Positions 1,261 to 14,572 of a stretch of DNA of 14,572 nucleotides are shown here, in pieces. The position numbers and the translations under genes were made by a program. The stretch is from a virus. Lineage: Duplodnaviria; Heunggongvirae; Uroviricota; Caudoviricetes. Within the stretch, counting starts at the first letter, position 1. Every line of letters starts with the position of its first letter. The stretch is taken from IMG/VR virus record IMGVR_UViG_2648501787_000012. One strand, 5' to 3'. The notes below the pieces were generated by a model, which saw only the letters and a list, made by a program, of their open reading frames with translations, searched no databases and was not told the DNA's origin.

Positions 1261-1355
1261 CTGAATAGATTGAGCCTAGCTCGACGGGGCGAAAAGCGGG
1301 AAGCCTTACCGCCTGGCTCAATCACAAAATAAGGCGCAGCGTAAAAGGTGACGCA

Positions 1356-2321
1356 ATGAACGACTCTCATGAAACAACAGTGGTGCATAGAAATTTATGG
1401 CAGGAATCAGGTATTCCACCTTTGGACTACTGCACGATAGAGCGAGCATCAAAATTATTAAATTGTGAAATTGATGATATATGGCATTGGAAAGATAGAC
1501 TACATATAGACTTTTATGTCTATGCTGACTTTCTTGATTTCATTGAATCTGATGCCACCATCCACTTCAAAAAAGATGCTAATTTTATAACTGATTTATT
1601 ACTTATGTACCCAGAAGAAGTAAGGTTTACATTTCCTTTTCTTATTACCAGCGCAAGCAACGAAGTTTATATCCCAGCATCTGAAAGCGGTGCTTATGAG
1701 CTATTTTATGCACATAAACCACTGACAGTTGAAGACAGCGACAATAAAAATGTTTTTGAACAAATTGGCAAAAACTCTTTTATTGTAAGAAAATCAATTG
1801 CATGTGGATTGTTGCGTGTACGCGGTAGAACAACACGACATTATCATTCACAAGAATGTGGAGAACCATATGTGCGACTTGAAGCAACATTTGATTGTGA
1901 TCTATATAAATTCAAAATGCAAAGTTCCCAAATTCACCTGAGTAGCCTGTCAGATAAAAACATTTATATAACAAAGGCTGATTTAGAATACCTTCATGAC
2001 GCAAAGGTTAATGGAAGTTTTGACGCAGCTAAGAGCAAAAAACGATACGAAATGGCGGTAGAACAGGAACTAATACCTGAAATAAAAAATAGCAACCATA
2101 ATGCCGAGAGACATGCTGAAAACAGGGAAAAACTTTTCAAATCTGCAATATATCTTTTGTCAAAGTATCCTGATGAATGCCGTGGCAAAAAGAAAGAAAT
2201 AAGCCCTGAGAAGTGGCGGGATTGCATAGTGGCTCATAAAGACGAAATTCCACCGTTAGCAATCACAAATGAAGATGTGATTTTGAGACACTTACGTGCT
2301 GCCGCCAACGGTAAGGGGTAG
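1356..2321 (+). CDS. Hypothetical protein, AT-rich cargo gene in the int-alpA slot (function unknown; candidate defence/anti-defence)
   Basis: 321-aa ORF with a Shine-Dalgarno-like AAGGTGA 6 nt upstream of the ATG and an intrinsic terminator immediately downstream. The sequence is visibly more AT-rich than the flanking int and alpA genes (e.g. aaattgatgatatatggcattggaaagatagactacatatagacttttatg). I recognise no motif in the protein. Confidence 0.8.
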   Translation: MNDSHETTVVHRNLWQESGIPPLDYCTIERASKLLNCEIDDIWHWKDRLHIDFYVYADFLDFIESDATIHFKKDANFITDLLLMYPEEVRFTFPFLITSASNEVYIPASESGAYELFYAHKPLTVEDSDNKNVFEQIGKNSFIVRKSIACGLLRVRGRTTRHYHSQECGEPYVRLEATFDCDLYKFKMQSSQIHLSSLSDKNIYITKADLEYLHDAKVNGSFDAAKSKKRYEMAVEQELIPEIKNSNHNAERHAENREKLFKSAIYLLSKYPDECRGKKKEISPEKWRDCIVAHKDEIPPLAITNEDVILRHLRAAANGKG

Positions 2322-2336
2322 AGTAGCTAACTATTC

Positions 2337-2366
2337 AGGCACAGTATCATTACTGTGCCTTTTTAT
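2337..2366 (+). terminator. Rho-independent terminator after the cargo gene
   Basis: Perfect 9-bp stem AGGCACAGT (2337-2345) / ACTGTGCCT (2352-2360) with a 6-nt loop, followed by TTTTTATTGTT. Confidence 0.75.
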
Positions 2367-2391
2367 TGTTCATATATGTACAGATACTTCC

Positions 2392-2432
2392 TCCCGTAAC
2401 GAAGCAACAACTATCGCTAAGAGGTTACGGGA
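2392..2432 (+). promoter_or_regulatory. Inverted repeat in the alpA leader (possible operator or RBS-occluding hairpin)
   Basis: TCCCGTAAC (2392-2400) and its exact reverse complement GTTACGGGA (2424-2432) separated by 23 nt. The right arm lies between the likely SD (AAGAGG, 2419-2424) and the alpA ATG (2436). Confidence 0.3.
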
Positions 2433-2435
2433 AGC

Positions 2436-3916: not shown

Positions 3917-4088
3917 GCCAACAGGAACACCACAACCACAAAAACGCTACAAAGATGCCCACGGAGCACTCGTTACTGTCGAAAGCGTGTCTCACAACCG
4001 AGTGACGTTTTATCGCGACGGGTATCAATCGCCATGCGTACAACCGCTGGCGCGTTTCATGAAGGAGTTCGCGGAGGTTAACCAATGA
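3909..4088 (+). CDS. Small hypothetical protein (59 aa)
   Basis: ATG at 3909 overlaps the upstream stop (ATGTCTAA) and is preceded by a strong SD, GGAGG at 3898-3902. The track ORF 3822..4088 is in the same frame, but its first Met has no RBS and would overlap the upstream gene by about 95 nt. Confidence 0.55.
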   Translation: MSKPTGTPQPQKRYKDAHGALVTVESVSHNRVTFYRDGYQSPCVQPLARFMKEFAEVNQ

Positions 4089-5152
4089 TACCCGTCCAGA
4101 AGAAGACATTTTCACTGGCTGGTATGTCGCCAAAATCCAGCAATATGACGGCAAAGTCAGGCATTAATACAGCAGATACAAGCAAAGTTTATCATTTGCT
4201 GGTGGTCGGAACGGATGCCTTAACCATACCAGAAATCTCGGGCGATGATATTAGCATTGAGAAGGTCAGCGGCTGCGCCAGAAAATTTCTGGTCGTAGAT
4301 GATGTCTTCCGCTCGCGTAGTGACTCCACAAAAACCTTCATCCGCGCGCGTGACGTTAACGAAATGAGCGCGATGTACTGTGCATCTGGTGCTTCCAATA
4401 GCGAGTTTTCGGAGTCCATAAAAAAGAGCTTGCCGTTATGCGGCAACACGGTTTATGGTTATAAGGCACCTCATAAAACGGGTGCCGGGATTGGCGTCCT
4501 GGTAAATCGAATGGCGACATATGACGCGCCGAGCGTCTTTTTTTATGTCGTAGGTCTGACTCACCCATTTTTTGGGCGTTGGTGTATAATCCAGCGCCTT
4601 TGTCAATCAATGGTGGCTCAGGCAGGGGCTTCTTCGGAAGCGCCGGTATCCATTCGAGCCGGTTACGCCAACCCTGTCTGGGCTACCACCAGCGAAATTG
4701 GCGTTTCCGGTGGTAGCGTTACATGCTATCGAATGGAGGCTGCCACATGCTGGCTACTACCCCTACCCAAAAACCGCAATTTATCTGGATTATCGCCGCA
4801 GTTCGCCGCGATTGCCCGACAATTACCGCCAGAATTCATCATATTGCTGCCGAGTCTGAACGCGATGCTCGCCGTTCTCTGGTGCGCGATCACGTCTGCT
4901 TTTTTGCTGGTCGTATCCGCATGGAGGTGGCACATGATTAAAACCTACGATGTGCATATGGATCCCCTCGAACGCACAAGCCAGATCATCACACTGACAG
5001 AAGTGATTAACGACATTCTGGTGAGCAACTCTCCCTCACGAGACGAAAGACTGAAGGCGTTACTCGCGATATTGGATCTCGCCGTTCGTGACGTTCATTT
5101 CCTGCTGGAAGGTGGCGAAATGCCAGTAAAAACGGGGGCAACCAATGAATAA
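4085..5152 (+). CDS. Uncertain long ORF (355 aa), probably a chimeric open frame rather than one protein
   Basis: ATG at 4085 overlaps the upstream stop (ATGA) and has a strong SD (GGAGG 4073-4077). Codon choice looks coding-like from 4085 to about 4580. The same frame then runs without a stop through the candidate RNA region and through the Icd-like gene (different frame) where its codons look poor (cta cta ccc cta ... tta), and merges with the 72-aa ORF at 4934. Either a real 5' gene whose end is obscured (frameshift/pseudogene) or a fortuitous open frame. Confidence 0.3.
4595..4725 (+). ncRNA. Candidate CI/C4-type antisense immunity RNA (P4 CI RNA / P1 C4 / IsrK-like)
   Basis: Perfect -10 TATAAT at 4585-4590 with a weak -35. 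GC-rich structured segment follows: UUCG-tetraloop hairpin GCTTC-TTCG-GAAGC (4628-4641), a short CCGG/CCGG stem (4643-4662) presenting the loop TATCCATTCGAG, and a 9-bp stem GCTACCACC (4682-4690) / GGTGGTAGC (4709-4717). Loop bases TCCATTCGA (4649-4657) are exactly complementary to TCGAATGGA (4729-4737), which overlaps the SD of the Icd-like gene, and to TCGAATGG upstream (4507-4514). Boundaries are approximate. Confidence 0.35.
4747..4941 (+). CDS. Host cell division inhibitor Icd-like small protein
   Basis: 64-aa ORF ([22 protein letters not shown]...[24 protein letters not shown]) with strong SD GGAGG (4735-4739) 7 nt upstream and E. coli-like codon choice. The ...SER.ARR.L.RD.V.FFAGR motif matches my recollection of the Icd-like family that follows C4-type RNAs. 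The track ORF starts at 4723, but 4747 has the RBS. Confidence 0.55.
   Translation: MLATTPTQKPQFIWIIAAVRRDCPTITARIHHIAAESERDARRSLVRDHVCFFAGRIRMEVAHD
4934..5152 (+). CDS. Small hypothetical protein (72 aa)
   Basis: ATG overlaps the Icd-like stop (cacATGATTAAa) and is preceded by GGAGGTGG (4924-4931). Good codon choice. Same frame as the uncertain 355-aa ORF, so it may be that ORF's C-terminus. Confidence 0.45.
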   Translation: MIKTYDVHMDPLERTSQIITLTEVINDILVSNSPSRDERLKALLAILDLAVRDVHFLLEGGEMPVKTGATNE

Positions 5153-7128: not shown

Positions 7129-9871
7129 TCTTATCCGTCAGGTTATCAGTGCGTCTGAAAACAACTGGCCTCATGTGCTGGGCTGCCTGAACATAAATGT
7201 CCCTGACTCTCCGCGCCGTCATGCTCCCTGCCCTGCATGTGGGGGCAAAGATCGATTCCGGTTCGATGACAACGGGCGCGGTAGCTTCATCTGTAATCAG
7301 TGCGGCGCTGGTGATGGGCTGGATTTAATTAAACGCGTAAATAACTGCGACACAACAGAGGCGGCGCTGCTTGCCGCTGATGTTCTGGGTATTGATTACC
7401 GGACAACGGAAACACCAGAAGCCACCAGCCAGAAACGGGAACAACTGGAAACCGAGCGCCAGCAACGCGAACAGGAGCGCCTGAAAAGGGCGGAGAAGGA
7501 CGAACAACAAAGACGGGATACGTTTTCCCGTCAGTTTGATGACATGCGCAGAAAGGCTGTAAACGGCAAATCTGATTATCTGGTTGCGAAAGGGGTAGGT
7601 GATTTTACATTCCCCGTGTTGCCCGATGGATCTCTGTTGCTGGCGCTGGTGGATAAATCCGGCGCAGTCACAGCAGCACAGACTATTACCTCACATGGTG
7701 AAAAAAGACTCCTGACAGGTTCAGCAAAGCGGGGGGCATATCACGCCATAAACGCACCAGAAACAACACAGAGCATCTTAATCGCAGAAGGGCTGGCAAC
7801 GGCATTATCTGCCCATTTAATTCGTCCAGAGGCGCTGACAGTGGCGGCGATTGATGCCGGGAACCTGTTATATGTCGCCCAGGTACTGCGGGATAAATTT
7901 CCTTCAGCACAAATCATCATTGCTGCGGATAACGACCACAGCGAAGGAAGACAAAACACGGGGAGAATAGCAGCAGAAAAAGCAGCTTTATCTGTTTCTG
8001 GATGGGTGGCATTACCCCCGACAGGTCACAAAGCAGACTGGAATGATTACCACCAAAAACACGGCATTAAATGCGCCACAGAAGCGTTCAATAAGTCAAT
8101 GTACCAACCACAGGGTAATGGCGTGAAACAGGAGCCACAGACCATTGAGGGAAGCGATTTTAAGGTTATGGATACCGACCCACTGAAACCAAGAATAGAA
8201 AGCCGCGAGGATGGTATTTATTGGGTATCTCCGAGAGCTGACAGCCAGAGTGGAGAAATCATCAATAACGAAAGCTGGTTATGTTCTCCGTTAAGCGTTA
8301 TCGGTACTGGCAGAGACGATAAAGACCAGTATCTCATTCTTCGCTGGCTGTCGTTTGGTTCTGAAACGCCGACAACCGCTGCCATTCCACTGGCTGATAT
8401 TGGTGAACGTGAAGGATGGCGCACACTTAAAGCTGGTGGGGTAAATGTCACGACCAAAAGCAGCCTCAGAGCAATACTGGCAGACTGGCTACAACGCAGT
8501 GGCTCTCGTGAATTGTGGCGTGTTGCTCATGCCACTGGCTGGCAATGCGGAGCGTACATCATGCCTGATGGGGAAATCATCGGAACACCTGAAAATCCTG
8601 TGCTGTTCAGCGGGAGAAGCTCAGCCGCAGCCGGATATACCGTCTCAGGGAGCGCGCAAAGCTGGCGTGATAACGTGGCGCGTCTGGCCTTTGGTAACTA
8701 TTCAATGATGACCGGGATCGGCGCAGCACTGGCAGCACCATTGATTGGGCTGGTGGGCGCTGACGGGTTCGGCATTCATTTCTATGAGCAGTCGAGCGCA
8801 GGTAAGACCACCACGGCAAACGTGGCGAGCAGCTTATACGGCAACCCTGATTTACTGCGGCTGACGTGGTACGGAACCGCGCTGGGGCTGGCAAATGAGG
8901 CCGCCGCCCACAATGACGGACTAATGCCGCTTGATGAAGTTGGTCAGGGCGCTGATCCTGTCAGCGTTTCACAGTCTGCCTATGCGTTATTTAACGGTGT
9001 AGGGAAACTGCAAGGCGCTAAAGATGGTGGAAACCGGGATCTAAAACGCTGGCGTACAGTGGCAATCAGCACCGGAGAAATGGATTTAGAAACATTTATC
9101 GCTACTTCCGGGCGAAAAACCAAAGCCGGGCAACTGGTGCGACTGCTGAATATTCCGTTGAGTAAAGCAGTACGCTTTCACGATTACCAGAACGGAAAAC
9201 AGCACGCAGACGCACTGAAAGACGCTTACCAGCATCACCATGGCGCAGCCGGGCGTGAGTGGATTAAATGGCTGGCAGACCACCAGCAACAGGCTATTAA
9301 AACTGTTCGTGATTGCGAAAGCAGATGGAGAAGCCTGATCCCACCCGATTATGGTGAGCAGGTTCACCGTGTAGCCGCGCGATTTGCCATTCTGGAGGCC
9401 GCATTGTTGTTAGGCGAGGTTGTAACAGGCTGGGATGCTCAGACATGCCGTGATGCGATACAGCACAGCTATAACGCATGGTTGCGCGAGTTCGGCACAG
9501 GTAACAAAGAGCATCAGCAGATTATTGAACAAACGGAGGCATTTCTTAATGCCTATGGGCTTAGCCGTTTTGCACCATTTCCATACAGCCCGGCAGATTT
9601 GCCCATCAAAGATTTAGCCGGATACCGTCAGCGTGGAGAACATGACGAAAGCCCAATGATTTTCTACACATTCCCGGCCACATTTGAAAAGGAGATCGCA
9701 TGTGGTTTCAACGCAAAACAGTTTGCTGAAGTGTTGAAAAAAGCCGGGATGCTAACCCCACCAAACAGCGGTCGTGGATACCAAAGAAAATCACCACGTA
9801 TTCAGGGACGACAAATAAACGTTTATGTACTCAATTACCAGCCAGGAGATTATAACTCATCTGAAGAATGA
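7112..9871 (+). CDS. P4 alpha-type DNA primase/helicase (zinc ribbon + TOPRIM + P-loop NTPase)
   Basis: 919-aa ORF. N-terminal zinc ribbon CPACGGKDRFRFDDNGRGSFICNQCG; TOPRIM signatures ILIAEGLATALS and IIIAADNDHSEGR; Walker A-like FYEQSSAGKTTT in the C-terminal half. Domain order matches phage P4 alpha and related satellite primases. Confidence 0.93.
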   Translation: MMRNIDLIRQVISASENNWPHVLGCLNINVPDSPRRHAPCPACGGKDRFRFDDNGRGSFICNQCGAGDGLDLIKRVNNCDTTEAALLAADVLGIDYRTTETPEATSQKREQLETERQQREQERLKRAEKDEQQRRDTFSRQFDDMRRKAVNGKSDYLVAKGVGDFTFPVLPDGSLLLALVDKSGAVTAAQTITSHGEKRLLTGSAKRGAYHAINAPETTQSILIAEGLATALSAHLIRPEALTVAAIDAGNLLYVAQVLRDKFPSAQIIIAADNDHSEGRQNTGRIAAEKAALSVSGWVALPPTGHKADWNDYHQKHGIKCATEAFNKSMYQPQGNGVKQEPQTIEGSDFKVMDTDPLKPRIESREDGIYWVSPRADSQSGEIINNESWLCSPLSVIGTGRDDKDQYLILRWLSFGSETPTTAAIPLADIGEREGWRTLKAGGVNVTTKSSLRAILADWLQRSGSRELWRVAHATGWQCGAYIMPDGEIIGTPENPVLFSGRSSAAAGYTVSGSAQSWRDNVARLAFGNYSMMTGIGAALAAPLIGLVGADGFGIHFYEQSSAGKTTTANVASSLYGNPDLLRLTWYGTALGLANEAAAHNDGLMPLDEVGQGADPVSVSQSAYALFNGVGKLQGAKDGGNRDLKRWRTVAISTGEMDLETFIATSGRKTKAGQLVRLLNIPLSKAVRFHDYQNGKQHADALKDAYQHHHGAAGREWIKWLADHQQQAIKTVRDCESRWRSLIPPDYGEQVHRVAARFAILEAALLLGEVVTGWDAQTCRDAIQHSYNAWLREFGTGNKEHQQIIEQTEAFLNAYGLSRFAPFPYSPADLPIKDLAGYRQRGEHDESPMIFYTFPATFEKEIACGFNAKQFAEVLKKAGMLTPPNSGRGYQRKSPRIQGRQINVYVLNYQPGDYNSSEE

Positions 9872-9893
9872 GCTTCTTCATGTGCGTAGAAAA

Positions 9894-10010
9894 GGTGTTG
9901 GTTCAGTTGGTTCAGTTGGTTCAATTTGTAAAGAGTATTGTTTTATAAGGATTTTATTCTTTTTATTGAACCAACACTGAACCAACAACACGGTATTTTG
10001 AACCAACACA
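9894..10010. repeat. Iteron array, putative replication origin
   Basis: Three tandem copies of GTTGGTTCA (9897-9905, 9906-9914, 9915-9923), a 43-bp very AT-rich spacer (9924-9966), then three copies of the reverse complement TGAACCAAC (9967-9975, 9978-9986, 9999-10007) spaced 11 and 21 bp. Begins 23 bp after the primase stop. Confidence 0.7.
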
Positions 10011-10100
10011 ATGTGACTGAATTGATGCGCACAACACCTGGCTGGCATCAGAGAGTGTTTTACGAGACTTTCGTAAAATCCTGTGTACAAGGGCGTGACG

Positions 10101-10141
10101 TTTTTGAAAGTGAGCACTACGAAATTTTCGTAGTTCAAAAA
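10101..10141. promoter_or_regulatory. Nested palindrome, possible protein-binding site or cruciform
   Basis: Outer arms TTTTTGAA (10101-10108) / TTCAAAAA (10134-10141); inner arms CTACGAAA (10117-10124) / TTTCGTAG (10126-10133) around one central T; 8-nt asymmetric insert on the left. A further TTTCGTAA half-site lies at 10069-10076. Confidence 0.35.
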
Positions 10142-10329
10142 ACAGCCTCTGAGAAGTTGTTATGCCTGTTCAGCAAACCATCCGCATAGCTGATCGCGAA
10201 TCAAATTACCAATGGAGCCAGAAGCAAGGGCAGAACTGAAAAGCGCCTGCCGTAAAGAGTAATGCGACACCATAAATATAGTTTTTAGAGTCCATAAAAA
10301 ACCTGTCAAAACCTGACACACAGAACGAT

Positions 10330-10360
10330 GCCACCAGCTACTGAGCGGTGGCATTTTTTT
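10330..10360 (+). terminator. Rho-independent terminator at the module boundary
   Basis: Stem GCCACC (10330-10335) / GGTGGC (10347-10352) with an 11-nt loop, followed by ATTTTTTTG. Confidence 0.7.
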
Positions 10361-10392
10361 GTGCTATTTGTTTCATATTTTGCAATTACGAT

Positions 10393-10422
10393 GATGAATA
10401 TTGCGATTTGCGAAACTATAAT
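10393..10422 (+). promoter_or_regulatory. Candidate sigma70 promoter for the downstream operon
   Basis: Perfect -10 TATAAT at 10417-10422 about 35 bp upstream of a strong RBS and ATG (10456); the -35 (around 10393-10399) is poor. AT-rich intergenic context. Confidence 0.3.
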
Positions 10423-10455
10423 AACTGTTGTTTTATACAGTTCTAAGGGGGCGTT

Positions 10456-10617
10456 ATGGCTATTTCAGTAAAGCCGGTATTGATAAGTGAGAAGCAAATG
10501 GAAGCGATAAAGAAAATTCAGGAAGAGCAGCGTAAAAAATCAGGAATTGGAGTAGCGCCAACTCTGCATGAAATTGCACGAGGGTTAATAGATAAGGCGC
10601 TGGCAGGCTGTATGTGA
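10456..10617 (+). CDS. Small hypothetical protein (53 aa), possibly ribbon-helix-helix-like
   Basis: Not in the ORF track (under 60 aa). ATG at 10456 preceded by an excellent SD (TAAGGGGGCG); stop TGA at 10615-10617. The translation (MAISVKPVLISEKQMEAIKKIQEEQRKKSGIGVAPTLHEIARGLIDKALAGCM) loosely fits a strand-helix-helix pattern; weak inference. Confidence 0.45.
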   Translation: MAISVKPVLISEKQMEAIKKIQEEQRKKSGIGVAPTLHEIARGLIDKALAGCM

Positions 10618-10633
10618 AAACGGATGGCACCGC

Positions 10634-11095
10634 ATGGAACTAAAATTTATTGATAACCCGGTGCGATTACAGGCCTTTCTTAACGAGCCTGGCAATACCG
10701 AAAATATTGTTGAGCCGGGGCACACGTACTACATCAAGCCTGATGCGGTATATCTCGGCATCTACGAAGGATTAGTGCTGACAGGCGTTCATGAAGTGCG
10801 TAACTTCTGGCATAGCATTGTTGAATGCCATGCGGTGTACGACCCCGGATTCCGTGGTGAATATGCACTGCAAGGGCATCGATTGTTCTGCAAATGGCTT
10901 CTCGAAAACTCACCATTCCTTAACAGCATCACCATGGTTCCTGACACCACGAAATACGGACGGGCAATTATCCGTTTGCTTGGCGCTACCCGTGTTGGTC
11001 ACCTGGCCGATGCATATATCAGATGTGGTAAACCCGTCGGCGTAACGCTTTATCAGTTAACACGGCAACAATATAAGGAACTCAGCGAATGTTAA
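10634..11095 (+). CDS. Hypothetical phage protein (153 aa), first gene of the ejection-protein-like operon
   Basis: Globular-looking protein with several His/Cys. Its stop overlaps the next start (ATGTTAA). Positionally analogous to P22 gp14, but homology is not established. Confidence 0.75.
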   Translation: MELKFIDNPVRLQAFLNEPGNTENIVEPGHTYYIKPDAVYLGIYEGLVLTGVHEVRNFWHSIVECHAVYDPGFRGEYALQGHRLFCKWLLENSPFLNSITMVPDTTKYGRAIIRLLGATRVGHLADAYIRCGKPVGVTLYQLTRQQYKELSEC

Positions 11096-11766
11096 TTACC
11101 CATATAGCTCATAAACATCTCAATCGTGCCGTATACGAAAAAGGCGGTGATGGTGGTGCCTCTAAAGCCCAGGCGAAGGCCCAGCAGCAGGCAATTGATT
11201 TGCAGCGCGAGCAGTGGAATACGGTGATGAATAATCTCAAGCCGTATGCAGAAGTCGGATTGCCTGCTTTACAACAACTGCAAGGACTGATGACTCTGGA
11301 AGGGCAGAATAAAGCCGCGAATGATTTCTTTGGTTCTGGTTTATATAAAACACAGGCAGATCAGGCCCGTTATCAGAACCTTGTCTCAGCAGAAGCTACC
11401 GGGGGGCTTGGCTCAACAGCTACCAGTAACCAGTTATCTTCCATTGCGCCCATGCTTTATAACAATTGGCTTAGTGGGCAAATGCAAAATTATGGAAACC
11501 TGCTAAATGTCGGGATGAATGCGGCATCAGGGCAGGCAACAGCAGGGCAAAACTACGCCAATAATACCGGACAACTCTTGCAGGGGCTTGGCGCTATTCG
11601 TGCAGGTCAGGCGCAGCAGCCATCCAGTCTTGCGCGTGGTATTGGTGGGGCGGCATCAGGCGCTTTAGCGGGTGCGCAACTTGGTTCCGTTGTTCCGGGT
11701 ATAGGTAATGTCGCCGGGGCTATTGGTGGTGGGCTTATTGGTCTTGTTGGGGGGCTTGGATTCTAA
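11089..11766 (+). CDS. Putative phage DNA ejection/transfer protein (P22 gp7-like by size and composition)
   Basis: 225-aa protein, Q/A/N/G-rich and low complexity, with a glycine-zipper-like hydrophobic C-terminus (GIGGAASGALAGAQLGSVVPGIGNVAGAIGGGLIGLVGGLGF). Coupled to neighbours by overlapping stop/start. Confidence 0.8.
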   Translation: MLITHIAHKHLNRAVYEKGGDGGASKAQAKAQQQAIDLQREQWNTVMNNLKPYAEVGLPALQQLQGLMTLEGQNKAANDFFGSGLYKTQADQARYQNLVSAEATGGLGSTATSNQLSSIAPMLYNNWLSGQMQNYGNLLNVGMNAASGQATAGQNYANNTGQLLQGLGAIRAGQAQQPSSLARGIGGAASGALAGAQLGSVVPGIGNVAGAIGGGLIGLVGGLGF

Positions 11767-13186
11767 TGACGACATGGCAACTTGGCGGGCTGCCTAGCAT
11801 GGCACCGCAAAATGATAATGCTCCTCGTTCTTCCGTTCCTCAGCCTGTGCAGTATCAGCAGCAGCCAAACGTAGGTTTAATGGCGCTACAGGGGCTAAGA
11901 GGCGTTGCTGAGATTAATCAGCAGGCACGTCAACAACAGCGTAAATCAGAGTTTCAGAAAGCATATGCCGGGGCTTTTGAGTCTGGAGACAGAAACAAAA
12001 TGCGCAGTCTTATTTCTGAGTATCCAGAAGAATTTGAAAGCGTTCAGAAAGGGATGGGCTTTATTGATGACGACCAGAGAAATTCTATTGGTCATCTTGC
12101 GACTAGTGCTCAAATCGCATCTTCGCTCGGAACTGGGGCATTTGGAAAATTCATAGCAGATAACGAAGATGAAATGCGTCGCTTGGGAATTTCTCCTGAG
12201 TCTGTTGCCGAAATGCATGTTAATGATCCACAGGGATTCCAGCGGCTTGCTGGTAGTATGGCACTGTTTTCTCTCGGTCATGAGAAGTATTTCAATATCA
12301 AAGATCAAATGGAAGGTCGGGATATTGAGCGAGGCAGGCTGGCAGAGACAATCCGCAGCAATCAGGCTGGCGAAGCACTTCAGGCGAGAGGGCAGGATAT
12401 TAGCCGAGCAAATGCGTTAACGTCAGCATATGCACCAACAGCAGCAATGCAGAATTACAATCAGTACGCTCAAATGTTAAAGGCGGATCCAGAGGGGGCG
12501 GCGGCATTTGCGGCAGCGGCTGGAATTAATACAAACGCCAAAAAATTAATGAGTGTTAGAGAAAACGATGATGGCACTGTCACAAAATACTACACAGACG
12601 GAAGTGAAGAGCAGGGAAAACTAAACCAGCCAATATCTGGAGATGGGTTTCGTCCAATAGCTTTGCCAACAGCCCAAAAGATCATGGAAAAGTCGCCAGA
12701 AGGGGCTAAAAAAGCTGCTGGATTTGCATACAGGGTTAGGGATGCTCTTGATTCAATAGATACACTGAAAGACCAGCTTAGCCCACAGCGAGTGGCGATC
12801 ATTAATAATGCTTTGGGTAATGGGACGCTGGCTAACTTAACGCTCAGCCCAACAGAGCAGCAATACGTTGTTAATGCTAATGACGCAATAATGGCAATAC
12901 TCCGTCAGGAAACAGGGGCAGCTATCGTACCTGCTGAAATGTCAAAATATTATCAAATGTATTTCCCTCAGCCTGGCGACTCCACAAAAACCATTGATAC
13001 CAAGCGCCGGAAGATGGAAAACCAGTTCAATTCGCTGAAAGCTGCTTCTGGTCGAGCTTATGATGCTTTGCGGGTTATTTCAGCAGTTGACAGAGGAACG
13101 TCTTCTTCGTCGCAGACATTGCCGCAATCTGAGCAGGTATCACAGCCAGCAGCCAGCAGTAACTTTTCTTCACTATGGGGTGATTA

Positions 13187-13187
<1 letters not shown>
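11766..13187 (+). CDS. Putative phage DNA ejection/transfer protein (P22 gp20-like by size and order)
   Basis: 473-aa protein, Q/A/S-rich, start overlaps upstream stop (TAATG). Sizes of the coupled genes here (225, 473, 461 aa) parallel the P22 gp7-gp20-gp16 ejection-protein trio as I recall it (about 229, 471, 609 aa). Recollection, not an alignment. Confidence 0.85.

Positions 13188-14572
<1,385 letters not shown>

Follow-up and report, generated by a model that had tools for sequence, protein, structure and literature searches.

A fixed but hypervariable gene between integrase and alpA in satellite islands of Enterobacterales

We analyzed a 14,572-nucleotide (nt) stretch of DNA (IMG/VR virus record IMGVR_UViG_2648501787_000012; this whole stretch is called the window below) and concentrated on gene X, which starts with ATG, occupies positions 1356-2321 on the plus strand, and encodes 321 amino acids (aa) between an integrase gene (int) and alpA. 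Sequence comparisons indicate that X is one allele of a hypervariable, uncharacterized protein family, and that this family forms a fixed but hypervariable part of a module that reads int, (int-alpA RNA), X, terminator, alpA. The module appears in satellites and genomic islands of the P4-integrase/AlpA type in Enterobacterales. X probably serves a satellite accessory function, 'defence' in a broad sense but not a classical enzyme-based system, and we tentatively favor the reading that it is a non-enzymatic protein that recognizes or excludes phages.

A protein search with X returned 48 homologous clusters from Enterobacterales, in genera that include Escherichia, Salmonella, Enterobacter, Cedecea, Klebsiella, Citrobacter, Pectobacterium, Pantoea, and Serratia. 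A profile search (E <= 1e-3) enlarged the family to at least 600 clusters (clustered at 50% identity), almost all with lengths of 270-345 aa. At least 1000 contigs carry exactly the allele of the window, annotated as 'hypothetical' each time. The description of X as an orphan gene in a first-pass annotation of this DNA does not survive these numbers. All 20 distinct alleles examined (those with readable context, out of at least 600 clusters) show the order int→X→alpA on the same strand. These 20 include islands at transfer-messenger RNA and tRNA attachment (att) sites, integrases 24-27% identical to that of the window, tandem satellites, an island with bacteriophage exclusion (BREX) cargo, and a circular Klebsiella element. 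The same family is thus kept at this position in related elements, which largely removes the idea that X is free cargo. One locus (L028, 1-20960) holds two tandem primase-bearing satellites, and in Symbiopectobacterium (L020, 1585-2952) int and X are separated by an additional 1.4 kb. A scan of a genome collection, with patterns derived from a subfamily-specific C-terminus, yielded five loci only. RefSeq accessions of four alleles from this slot and of an alternative occupant, a DUF6387 protein, are mentioned in no paper found in the literature search.

A plasmid origin was considered and rejected. The full-length matches labeled 'plasmid' were a 4.9-Mb Escherichia coli record, evidently a chromosome, and Klebsiella circles of 21.8 and 22.9 kb, the smaller of which proved on inspection to be an island. 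This record (L021; CP031371.2, 21,845 bp, circular, K. pneumoniae 'plasmid' pKpvST101_4) contains a complete int-X-alpA-antirepressor-DUF4222 island with C4 and isrK RNAs and an int reading frame split in two; it may be an excised, circularized satellite. Most other matches in the plasmid search covered the N-terminal motif only and came from large records, and the one inspected (L022) lies among chromosomal genes. There, on a Klebsiella chromosome, a 273-aa gene (3995-4816) carries the X N-terminal motif with no int or alpA nearby.

The slot is variable among close relatives, as the first-pass annotation had supposed. We surveyed 187 complete E. coli genomes that match segment 1261-2435 and share its flanks; this X allele is present in 77, intact and at >= 98.7% identity, and the remainder retain the flanks or the 3' end only. 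Islands whose Int proteins are 99-100% identical and whose AlpA proteins are 100% identical carry X alleles that share 29-60% identity; over all islands compared whose backbones are nearly the same, the range is 22-60%. Blastn aligned the window to strain ECONIH5 (L003) at 99.3% identity as far as position 1360 and at 95% starting from 2393, and it aligned none of the DNA in between, so that the cassette defined by recombination breakpoints is the replaced segment 1361-2392. Against NT1F10, homology restarts at 2121, within X. ETEC1721 (L025) encodes Int, AlpA, and orf143 proteins identical to those of the window, and synonymous divergence (dS) is 0.003 for int and 0 for alpA and orf143, as against a dS of 0.60 and a nonsynonymous divergence (dN) of 0.28 for X. 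Because the synonymous sites of X have diverged as well, the allele was swapped by recombination and did not diverge rapidly in place. Whole cassettes are exchanged in this way, by homologous recombination, with the 3' end of int plus the int-alpA RNA as left anchor and either the alpA leader or the conserved 3' module of X itself as right anchor. Comparison of X with a 98%-identical allele gave a dN/dS of 0.21, a sign of purifying selection that marks X as a genuine coding gene.

Three of the four alternative occupants of the slot in E. coli belong to the X family (E 1e-17 to 1e-109). The fourth, a DUF6387 protein of about 285 aa (L004, 3590-4441), is preceded by the same int-alpA RNA, and in the CP4-57 element of K-12 the slot holds yfjH on the opposite strand. 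Since DUF6387 substitutes for X in a homologous island with the same int-alpA RNA and alpA leader, and since the related island EcCIMP1 is inducible with only a small open reading frame (ORF) in the slot (PMC11773190), X appears to be accessory and dispensable for the island core. DUF6387 and YfjH resemble X in size (283-318 aa) and share its slot, and DUF6387 may be a functional analogue of X. Kinship was not supported in either case: only the L004 occupant matches DUF6387 (PF19924; E = 3.8e-30), X and 140 relatives do not, and an hhalign comparison gave a probability of 0.2%; for YfjH, no homology was detectable by hidden Markov model or hhalign. DUF6387 also adjoins AlpA in ICEKp258.2, an island of Klebsiella ST258 (PMC10763509).

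Both flanks of the cassette are structured and conserved. The 95-nt int-X spacer, which the first-pass annotation had left anonymous, contains the Rfam int-alpA RNA motif (RF02996) at 1269-1335 on the plus strand, recovered full-length by cmscan (model positions 1-71/71) with 60.6 bits against a gathering threshold of 35.8 (E = 1e-10 to 1e-12). The motif starts 9 nt after the int stop codon and consists of an 8-9 bp outer stem around two small hairpins (minimum free energy -32.4 kcal/mol, z = -2.45). It follows int in seven other loci (L003, L004, L005, L007, L016, L017, and L018), whatever gene comes next, DUF6387 included, and it is absent from eight (L002, L009, L010, L012, L013, L015, L019, and L020), being missing where X abuts int. 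In these loci the gene next to the RF02996 motif is not alpA but a hypervariable one, X or DUF6387. The motif marks the left recombination boundary of the cassette and forms its conserved left flank. In the window its U-rich consensus tail is degenerate, which suggests read-through from int past the motif.

On the right, the Shine-Dalgarno sequence of alpA sits between the arms of an inverted repeat in the alpA leader (UCCCGUAAC / GUUACGGGA; 2392-2432, plus strand). The repeat stops 3 nt short of the ATG, right-hand homology restarts exactly at it, and it makes up the conserved right flank of the cassette. Over 10 loci, 96.7% of cells are paired and three pairs are compensatory, and none of 500 shuffles matches the covariation score; the fold has a free energy of -15.4 kcal/mol (z = -2.55). 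The more distant islands L009, L019, and L020 have unrelated inverted repeats at the same position. The repeat is a candidate RNA hairpin or palindromic operator that would belong to the control of alpA and not of X. A TATACAG-like motif lies about 20 nt upstream of it.

The composition of X sets it apart from the rest of the window. Its GC content is 0.369 and its GC content at third codon positions (GC3) 0.292, compared with means of 0.486 (sd 0.017) and 0.472 (sd 0.053) for the 16 other ORFs (z = -6.7 and -3.4, respectively). Sliding GC is 0.34-0.37 at 1400-2200 versus about 0.49-0.51 on either side, and only 1.1% of all 966-nt windows are as AT-rich as X, each of them overlapping it, which makes X the most AT-rich stretch of the window. 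The earlier observation that X is more AT-rich than its neighbors therefore holds, whereas its use as a mark of foreign cargo does not: in every locus examined X lies 5-20 GC points below its own flanks (e.g. 0.40 in a 0.605 GC locus), so that low GC is a trait of the family and not a sign of recent import.

The expression signals of X likewise agree in part with the first-pass annotation, which had described an insulated single-gene cassette. X has its own Shine-Dalgarno sequence (AAGGTG, 1345-1350, plus strand, read from the sequence 5 nt upstream of the ATG) and a strong intrinsic terminator (2337-2370, plus strand), formed by a 10-bp stem (2337-2360) followed by the T-run TTTTTATTGTT. The hairpin has a free energy of -16.5 kcal/mol (z = -4.6), and none of 200 shuffles was equally stable; it lies within the replaced segment and is part of the swapped cassette. 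Insulation on the 5' side is another matter. A promoter scan found no sigma-70-like promoter within 1261-1355, and in several related loci X starts 9-28 nt 3' of the int stop codon. For these two reasons X is probably co-transcribed with int, which it would follow in a two-gene int-X operon closed by the X terminator.

X is predicted to have three parts, namely an acidic winged helix of the AlpA/Xis/MerR kind, a hypervariable β-rich center, and a conserved helical C-terminus. The AlphaFold2 model contains a strand-helix-helix-strand unit, a β-rich center, a long helix, and a small helical bundle. The N-terminal domain (aa 20-58; 1413-1529, plus strand; consensus LPPLEYCrLdRAAkLLgCEveDLlHWaxiGaIeLC) has the elements of a winged helix-turn-helix fold in the model. 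Its putative recognition helix carries a mean net charge of -2.3 across the family, which argues against classical DNA binding. The charge of the whole protein averages -9 in the family and is -8 over the 321 aa of X; the C-terminal module alone is mildly basic. The hypervariable center (aa 59-199; 1530-1952, plus strand), delimited by BLASTP coverage, alignment, secondary structure, and conservation, exists in a version common to five database clusters only, and its sole family-wide motif is G151-L-W. Alignments and models then place a strand-helix unit at aa 200-240 (1953-2075, plus strand), with the motif D-L-x-I-T...L...G and a poorly conserved linker helix. The C-terminal module (aa 247-321; 2094-2321, plus strand) comprises the long helix and the small helical bundle and would act as an internal recombination anchor; its consensus is AERHAxNREKLFKSAIYLLSKYPDECRG..KEISPEKWRDC..H..EIPPL.ITNEDVILKHLR.AANGKG, with ER.A.NRE..L..AI......PDEC...W...H....PPL as the family-wide pattern. 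BLAST coverage tells the same story: the first 200 residues are common to five clusters only, and residues 198-321 are 50-81% identical across genera. Family-wide conservation is limited to four places, the N-block (about 40 residues), G-L-W, the D-L-x-I-T unit near residue 200, and the C-module.

The assignment of X to a known function met with no success. X had no match in Pfam, NCBIfam, or PHROG (the last at E <= 0.01), a family profile found nothing among PDB sequences at E <= 10, and Foldseek found nothing among BFVD viral structures at E <= 1e-3; no catalytic or enzymatic fold emerged from the profile, PDB, and structure searches. X shares the fold of AlpA, Xis, and MerR proteins and not their family membership. 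It is about five times longer, its recognition helix is acidic, and it gave no match to PF05930 or PF12728 even at E <= 10; one of 142 relatives touches HTH_17 (E = 0.005). The phrog_7144 group, which has no annotated function, matches 37 of 142 family members (best E = 1e-123) but not the X of the window. A match of X to the defence profile PDC-S31 (PDLC04994; E = 0.002, 15.6 bits, profile positions 19-105 of 273) is shared by none of 141 relatives and was for that reason dismissed as chance. A HEPN ribonuclease was rejected in view of an R288-x5-H294 motif that is not conserved across the family. A four-cysteine metal site joining the N- and C-termini was rejected as well, C26, C37, and C275 being replaced by hydrophobic residues when missing and C290 being rare. 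Kinship with EcCIMP1_002 was also set aside, as that protein is small, about 10% of UvrB length (PMC11773190).

The surrounding element was assigned to the Gram-negative phage-inducible chromosomal islands (PICIs) or P4-like satellites of E. coli, on the basis of Pfam and PHROG matches, C4/isrK RNAs, and the annotated locus L001; mobilization by a helper is a prediction only. The window matches E. coli chromosomes at 100% identity, and in strain M160133 (L001) the element lies downstream of yicC. All its parts run in one direction: int, alpA, a Bro/Ash zone with a C4/CI-type RNA, a P4-type primase, and a late zone. This layout fits the four-zone plan of Gram-negative PICIs, with integration, Bro, replication, and late zones (PMC10111431). 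The int gene (1-1260) encodes the Pfam domains Arm-DNA-bind_3, Phage_int_M, and Phage_integrase. The alpA gene (2436-2639) is followed by orf143, and the overlap of the alpA stop and orf143 start at 2636-2640 (TGATG) suggests translational coupling, as reported for alpA-eta of P4-like elements (PMC10111431). Next come genes for an AntA/Bro protein, DUF4222, Ash, and several small ORFs, then a 919-aa primase (Zn-ribbon/Toprim/DUF927), DUF2824, and P22-type DNA-ejection genes. The late zone (10634-14572, plus strand) comprises DUF2824 (phrog_651) and three P22-type DNA-ejection proteins (phrog_598, 917, and 770/29864). It corresponds to 26098-33175 in L001, where the last gene of the zone in M160133 is broken by an IS66 element; the related island of strain D5 (L024) has SSB and PerC genes in its late zone. 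EcCIMP1, a PICI mobilized by the P22-like phage Kapi1, likewise has DUF2824 and DNA-transfer genes after its primase (PMC11773190).

Two Rfam RNAs lie on the plus strand inside the 'ash' ORF (4085-5152), isrK at 4466-4543 (67 bits) and the C4 antisense RNA at 4606-4693 (79.5 bits). Together they look like a CI/C4 immunity RNA cassette of the P4/P1 type in the Ash region, and since they are embedded there the long 'ash' ORF call may be partly non-coding. The pair also occurs in L002, L003, L004, L005, L010, and L021. A second AT-rich stretch of the window (9600-10600, GC 0.40-0.42), 3' of the primase and with short ORFs only, may be a replication origin or iteron region of the island. In M160133, a gene annotated as 'reverse transcriptase family protein' (L001, 10882-11841) has been inserted some 3 kb upstream of the island, with slmA and pyrE as its neighbors. 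The equivalent position in ECONIH5 and D5 (L023 and L024) lacks this gene, which may be a retron-type defence insertion.

Comparison with known systems places the X slot close to two of them without a full match to either. The Stl repressor of Staphylococcus aureus pathogenicity islands (SaPIs) is, like X, encoded next to int, has an N-terminal domain of the helix-turn-helix type, and is extremely divergent between related islands in its remainder. Such divergence of Stl suits the recognition of different phage proteins. Stl is mentioned in earlier work (PMC6092414). The likeness in position and hypervariability does not extend to orientation and indispensability. Stl has a basic helix-turn-helix of the cI type and is divergently transcribed, whereas X has an acidic winged helix of the Xis/MerR type, points in the same direction as alpA with a terminator in between, and can be replaced by DUF6387; our comparison showed no relation in sequence or fold. 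The other parallel is with the hotspots of satellites (P4 int-psu; the 5'-end, 3'-end, and pri-adjacent sites of PICIs), which, like the X slot, lie between core genes and have low GC (PMC13586616, PMC11364771, PMC10085698). In both, near-identical elements have different occupants that turn over by recombination on conserved flanks. However, the hotspots house a wide range of unrelated systems, most of them enzymatic and also present at other sites, whereas the X slot is held in most islands by one non-enzymatic family found essentially only there. The earlier view of the slot as a cargo hotspot is accordingly right as far as DUF6387 and yfjH occupy it, and wrong in that three of the four alternatives, in a slot whose 20 examined alleles all keep the int→X→alpA order, are X-family members and not unrelated genes known from other contexts. 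The slot thus seems to behave like a satellite accessory or immune hotspot dominated by one context-bound family. Immune genes described earlier in PICIs lie between att and int and not between int and alpA (PMC13586616).

For the preferred reading, that X recognizes or excludes phages, we count the size and uniform length of the family, the strict synteny, the cassette replacement, the dispensability of X for the island core, the purifying selection, and the lack of an enzymatic fold. Low GC is typical of accessory genes, and its presence throughout the family counts in the same direction. In PICIs, accessory and immune genes occupy the 5' end, in the interval from int to the regulator (PMC10085698, PMC11364771), and EcCIMP1 shows a superinfection immunity that is unexplained, no known defence system being present (PMC11773190). 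X alleles differ along their whole length while Int and AlpA are 99-100% identical, so the target of X is likely external, and its variable part does not co-evolve with its neighbors. On this reading, X would be made together with Int and act as a stoichiometric recognition protein. Its fast-changing center would engage a target that lies outside the island and evolves rapidly, a phage protein being the most plausible candidate, and its conserved ends would contact a constant partner. A helper or competitor phage would thereby be excluded or hindered in an allele-specific way.

Several points weigh against this reading. The strongest is the combination of strict coupling to int and alpA with an AlpA-like domain. 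Defence genes typically move from one context to another and the X family does not, which argues for a function tied to the integration module, and an AlpA/Xis-like N-terminal domain, as modeled, would be in keeping with a part in regulation or recombination. Away from int and alpA the family was seen once only, in the Klebsiella remnant L022, and tblastn did not find it in 50,697 phage genomes. PADLOC (PADLOC-DB v2) gave only scattered single-member matches (E >= 4.6e-4) among 142 family proteins. The AlphaFold2 model is of moderate confidence (mean predicted local distance difference test score of 73), and its central domain rests on five homologues. Co-transcription with int, finally, is deduced from spacing and the lack of a detected promoter.

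The chief alternative, which we regard as possible though less probable, is that X is a life-cycle regulator or helper sensor that gates AlpA-driven induction or Int-mediated excision. It could be kin to the AlpA winged helix and work as an anti-activator or decoy, or it could sense the helper in the manner of Stl, with its variable center binding a helper-phage protein. Its hypervariability would parallel the diversity of SaPI Stl, and its position between int and alpA is invariant across deep divergence; the modeled N-terminal AlpA/Xis/MerR-like fold and the mildly basic, winged-helix-like bundle at the C-terminus would also suit such a role. Yet the putative recognition helix and the protein as a whole are acidic (-2.3 and a mean of -9), X varies freely beside identical Int, AlpA, and alpA leader, and a homologous island carries DUF6387 instead. 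X is moreover co-directional with alpA with a strong terminator between, in contrast to the divergent orientation of known satellite repressors. Immunity is already provided on this island by a P4-type C4/CI RNA, which leaves less need for a protein repressor. To our knowledge, the int-alpA slot of EcCICFT073 is empty. That island is helper-inducible via AlpA with no further factor reported (PMC6092414), and EcCIMP1 is inducible with only a small ORF here (PMC11773190), but no repressor is known for Gram-negative PICIs, nor is the phage inducer of alpA (PMC6092414). A bolder version, by analogy with SaPIs, holds that the X family supplies the phage-sensing switch so far missing from the picture of Gram-negative satellites and AlpA-type islands, with Stl-like logic in an unrelated protein; we think this unlikely. 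Here the center would bind a helper-phage protein, the winged helix and C-module would relieve or trigger AlpA- or Int-driven induction, and the int-alpA RNA and alpA leader hairpin would belong to the same control circuit. A little less likely again is an acidic, host-directed anti-defence protein that neutralizes a variable host or competitor factor (e.g. restriction or another immune component) and thereby aids establishment of the satellite or its helper. The net acidic, non-enzymatic nature of X, its diversifying cassette exchange, and presumed expression beside int early on entry would all fit, but its charge is moderate (-8 over 321 aa), unlike that of known DNA mimics, and no similarity to known anti-defence folds appeared in the PDB or BFVD.

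The remaining explanations fare worse. We consider it improbable that X is a recombination accessory, that is, a directionality or architectural factor for the P4-type integrase with one or two Xis-like winged-helix units. Adjacency to int in what is probably the same operon, the modeled Xis/AlpA-like N-terminal fold, and the second strand-helix unit at aa 200-220 would be in keeping with it. Directionality factors, however, co-evolve with integrase and att, and X is hypervariable beside constant Int and flanks; its 'recognition' helix is acidic, it is 5-6 times larger than known Xis proteins, and AlpA already fills the excisionase and activator role in such islands (PMC6092414, PMC10111431). 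The reading of the first-pass annotation, that X is an orphan defence or anti-defence cassette of a single gene, insulated and newly arrived in a cargo hotspot, is largely refuted as worded and now very doubtful. Low GC, an own ribosome-binding site and terminator, slot variability, and the weak PDC-S31 match spoke for it. Set against these are at least 600 related clusters, AT-richness as a family trait in every host, confinement to the slot in 20 of 20 alleles, no detected promoter of its own, and a leader that is a conserved RNA motif; the PDC-S31 match is unshared by relatives, no catalytic fold was found, and no evidence for defence or anti-defence emerged. That X is a non-functional or decaying ORF is barely credible. 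Annotation is absent everywhere, as such a reading would have it, but dN/dS is 0.21-0.47, length is conserved over hundreds of clusters, the gene is intact in 77 E. coli genomes, and motifs are conserved at both ends.

What was an anonymous 'hypothetical protein' is now a defined family with a fixed slot, mapped breakpoints, and a three-part predicted architecture of which only the center diversifies, and the orphan Rfam int-alpA motif gains a genomic role as the leader and recombination anchor of the X cassette. These observations touch two unresolved questions in the field, how Gram-negative PICIs and P4-like satellites sense phages and what the accessory genes at their 5' ends do. If X blocks phages, it would stand for a new family of exclusion systems, non-enzymatic and allele-specific. 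If it instead controls induction, the more exciting outcome, the coupling of these islands to their helpers would be explained, and, should X be the phage-sensing switch itself, a cassette swap would re-target an island to a new helper.

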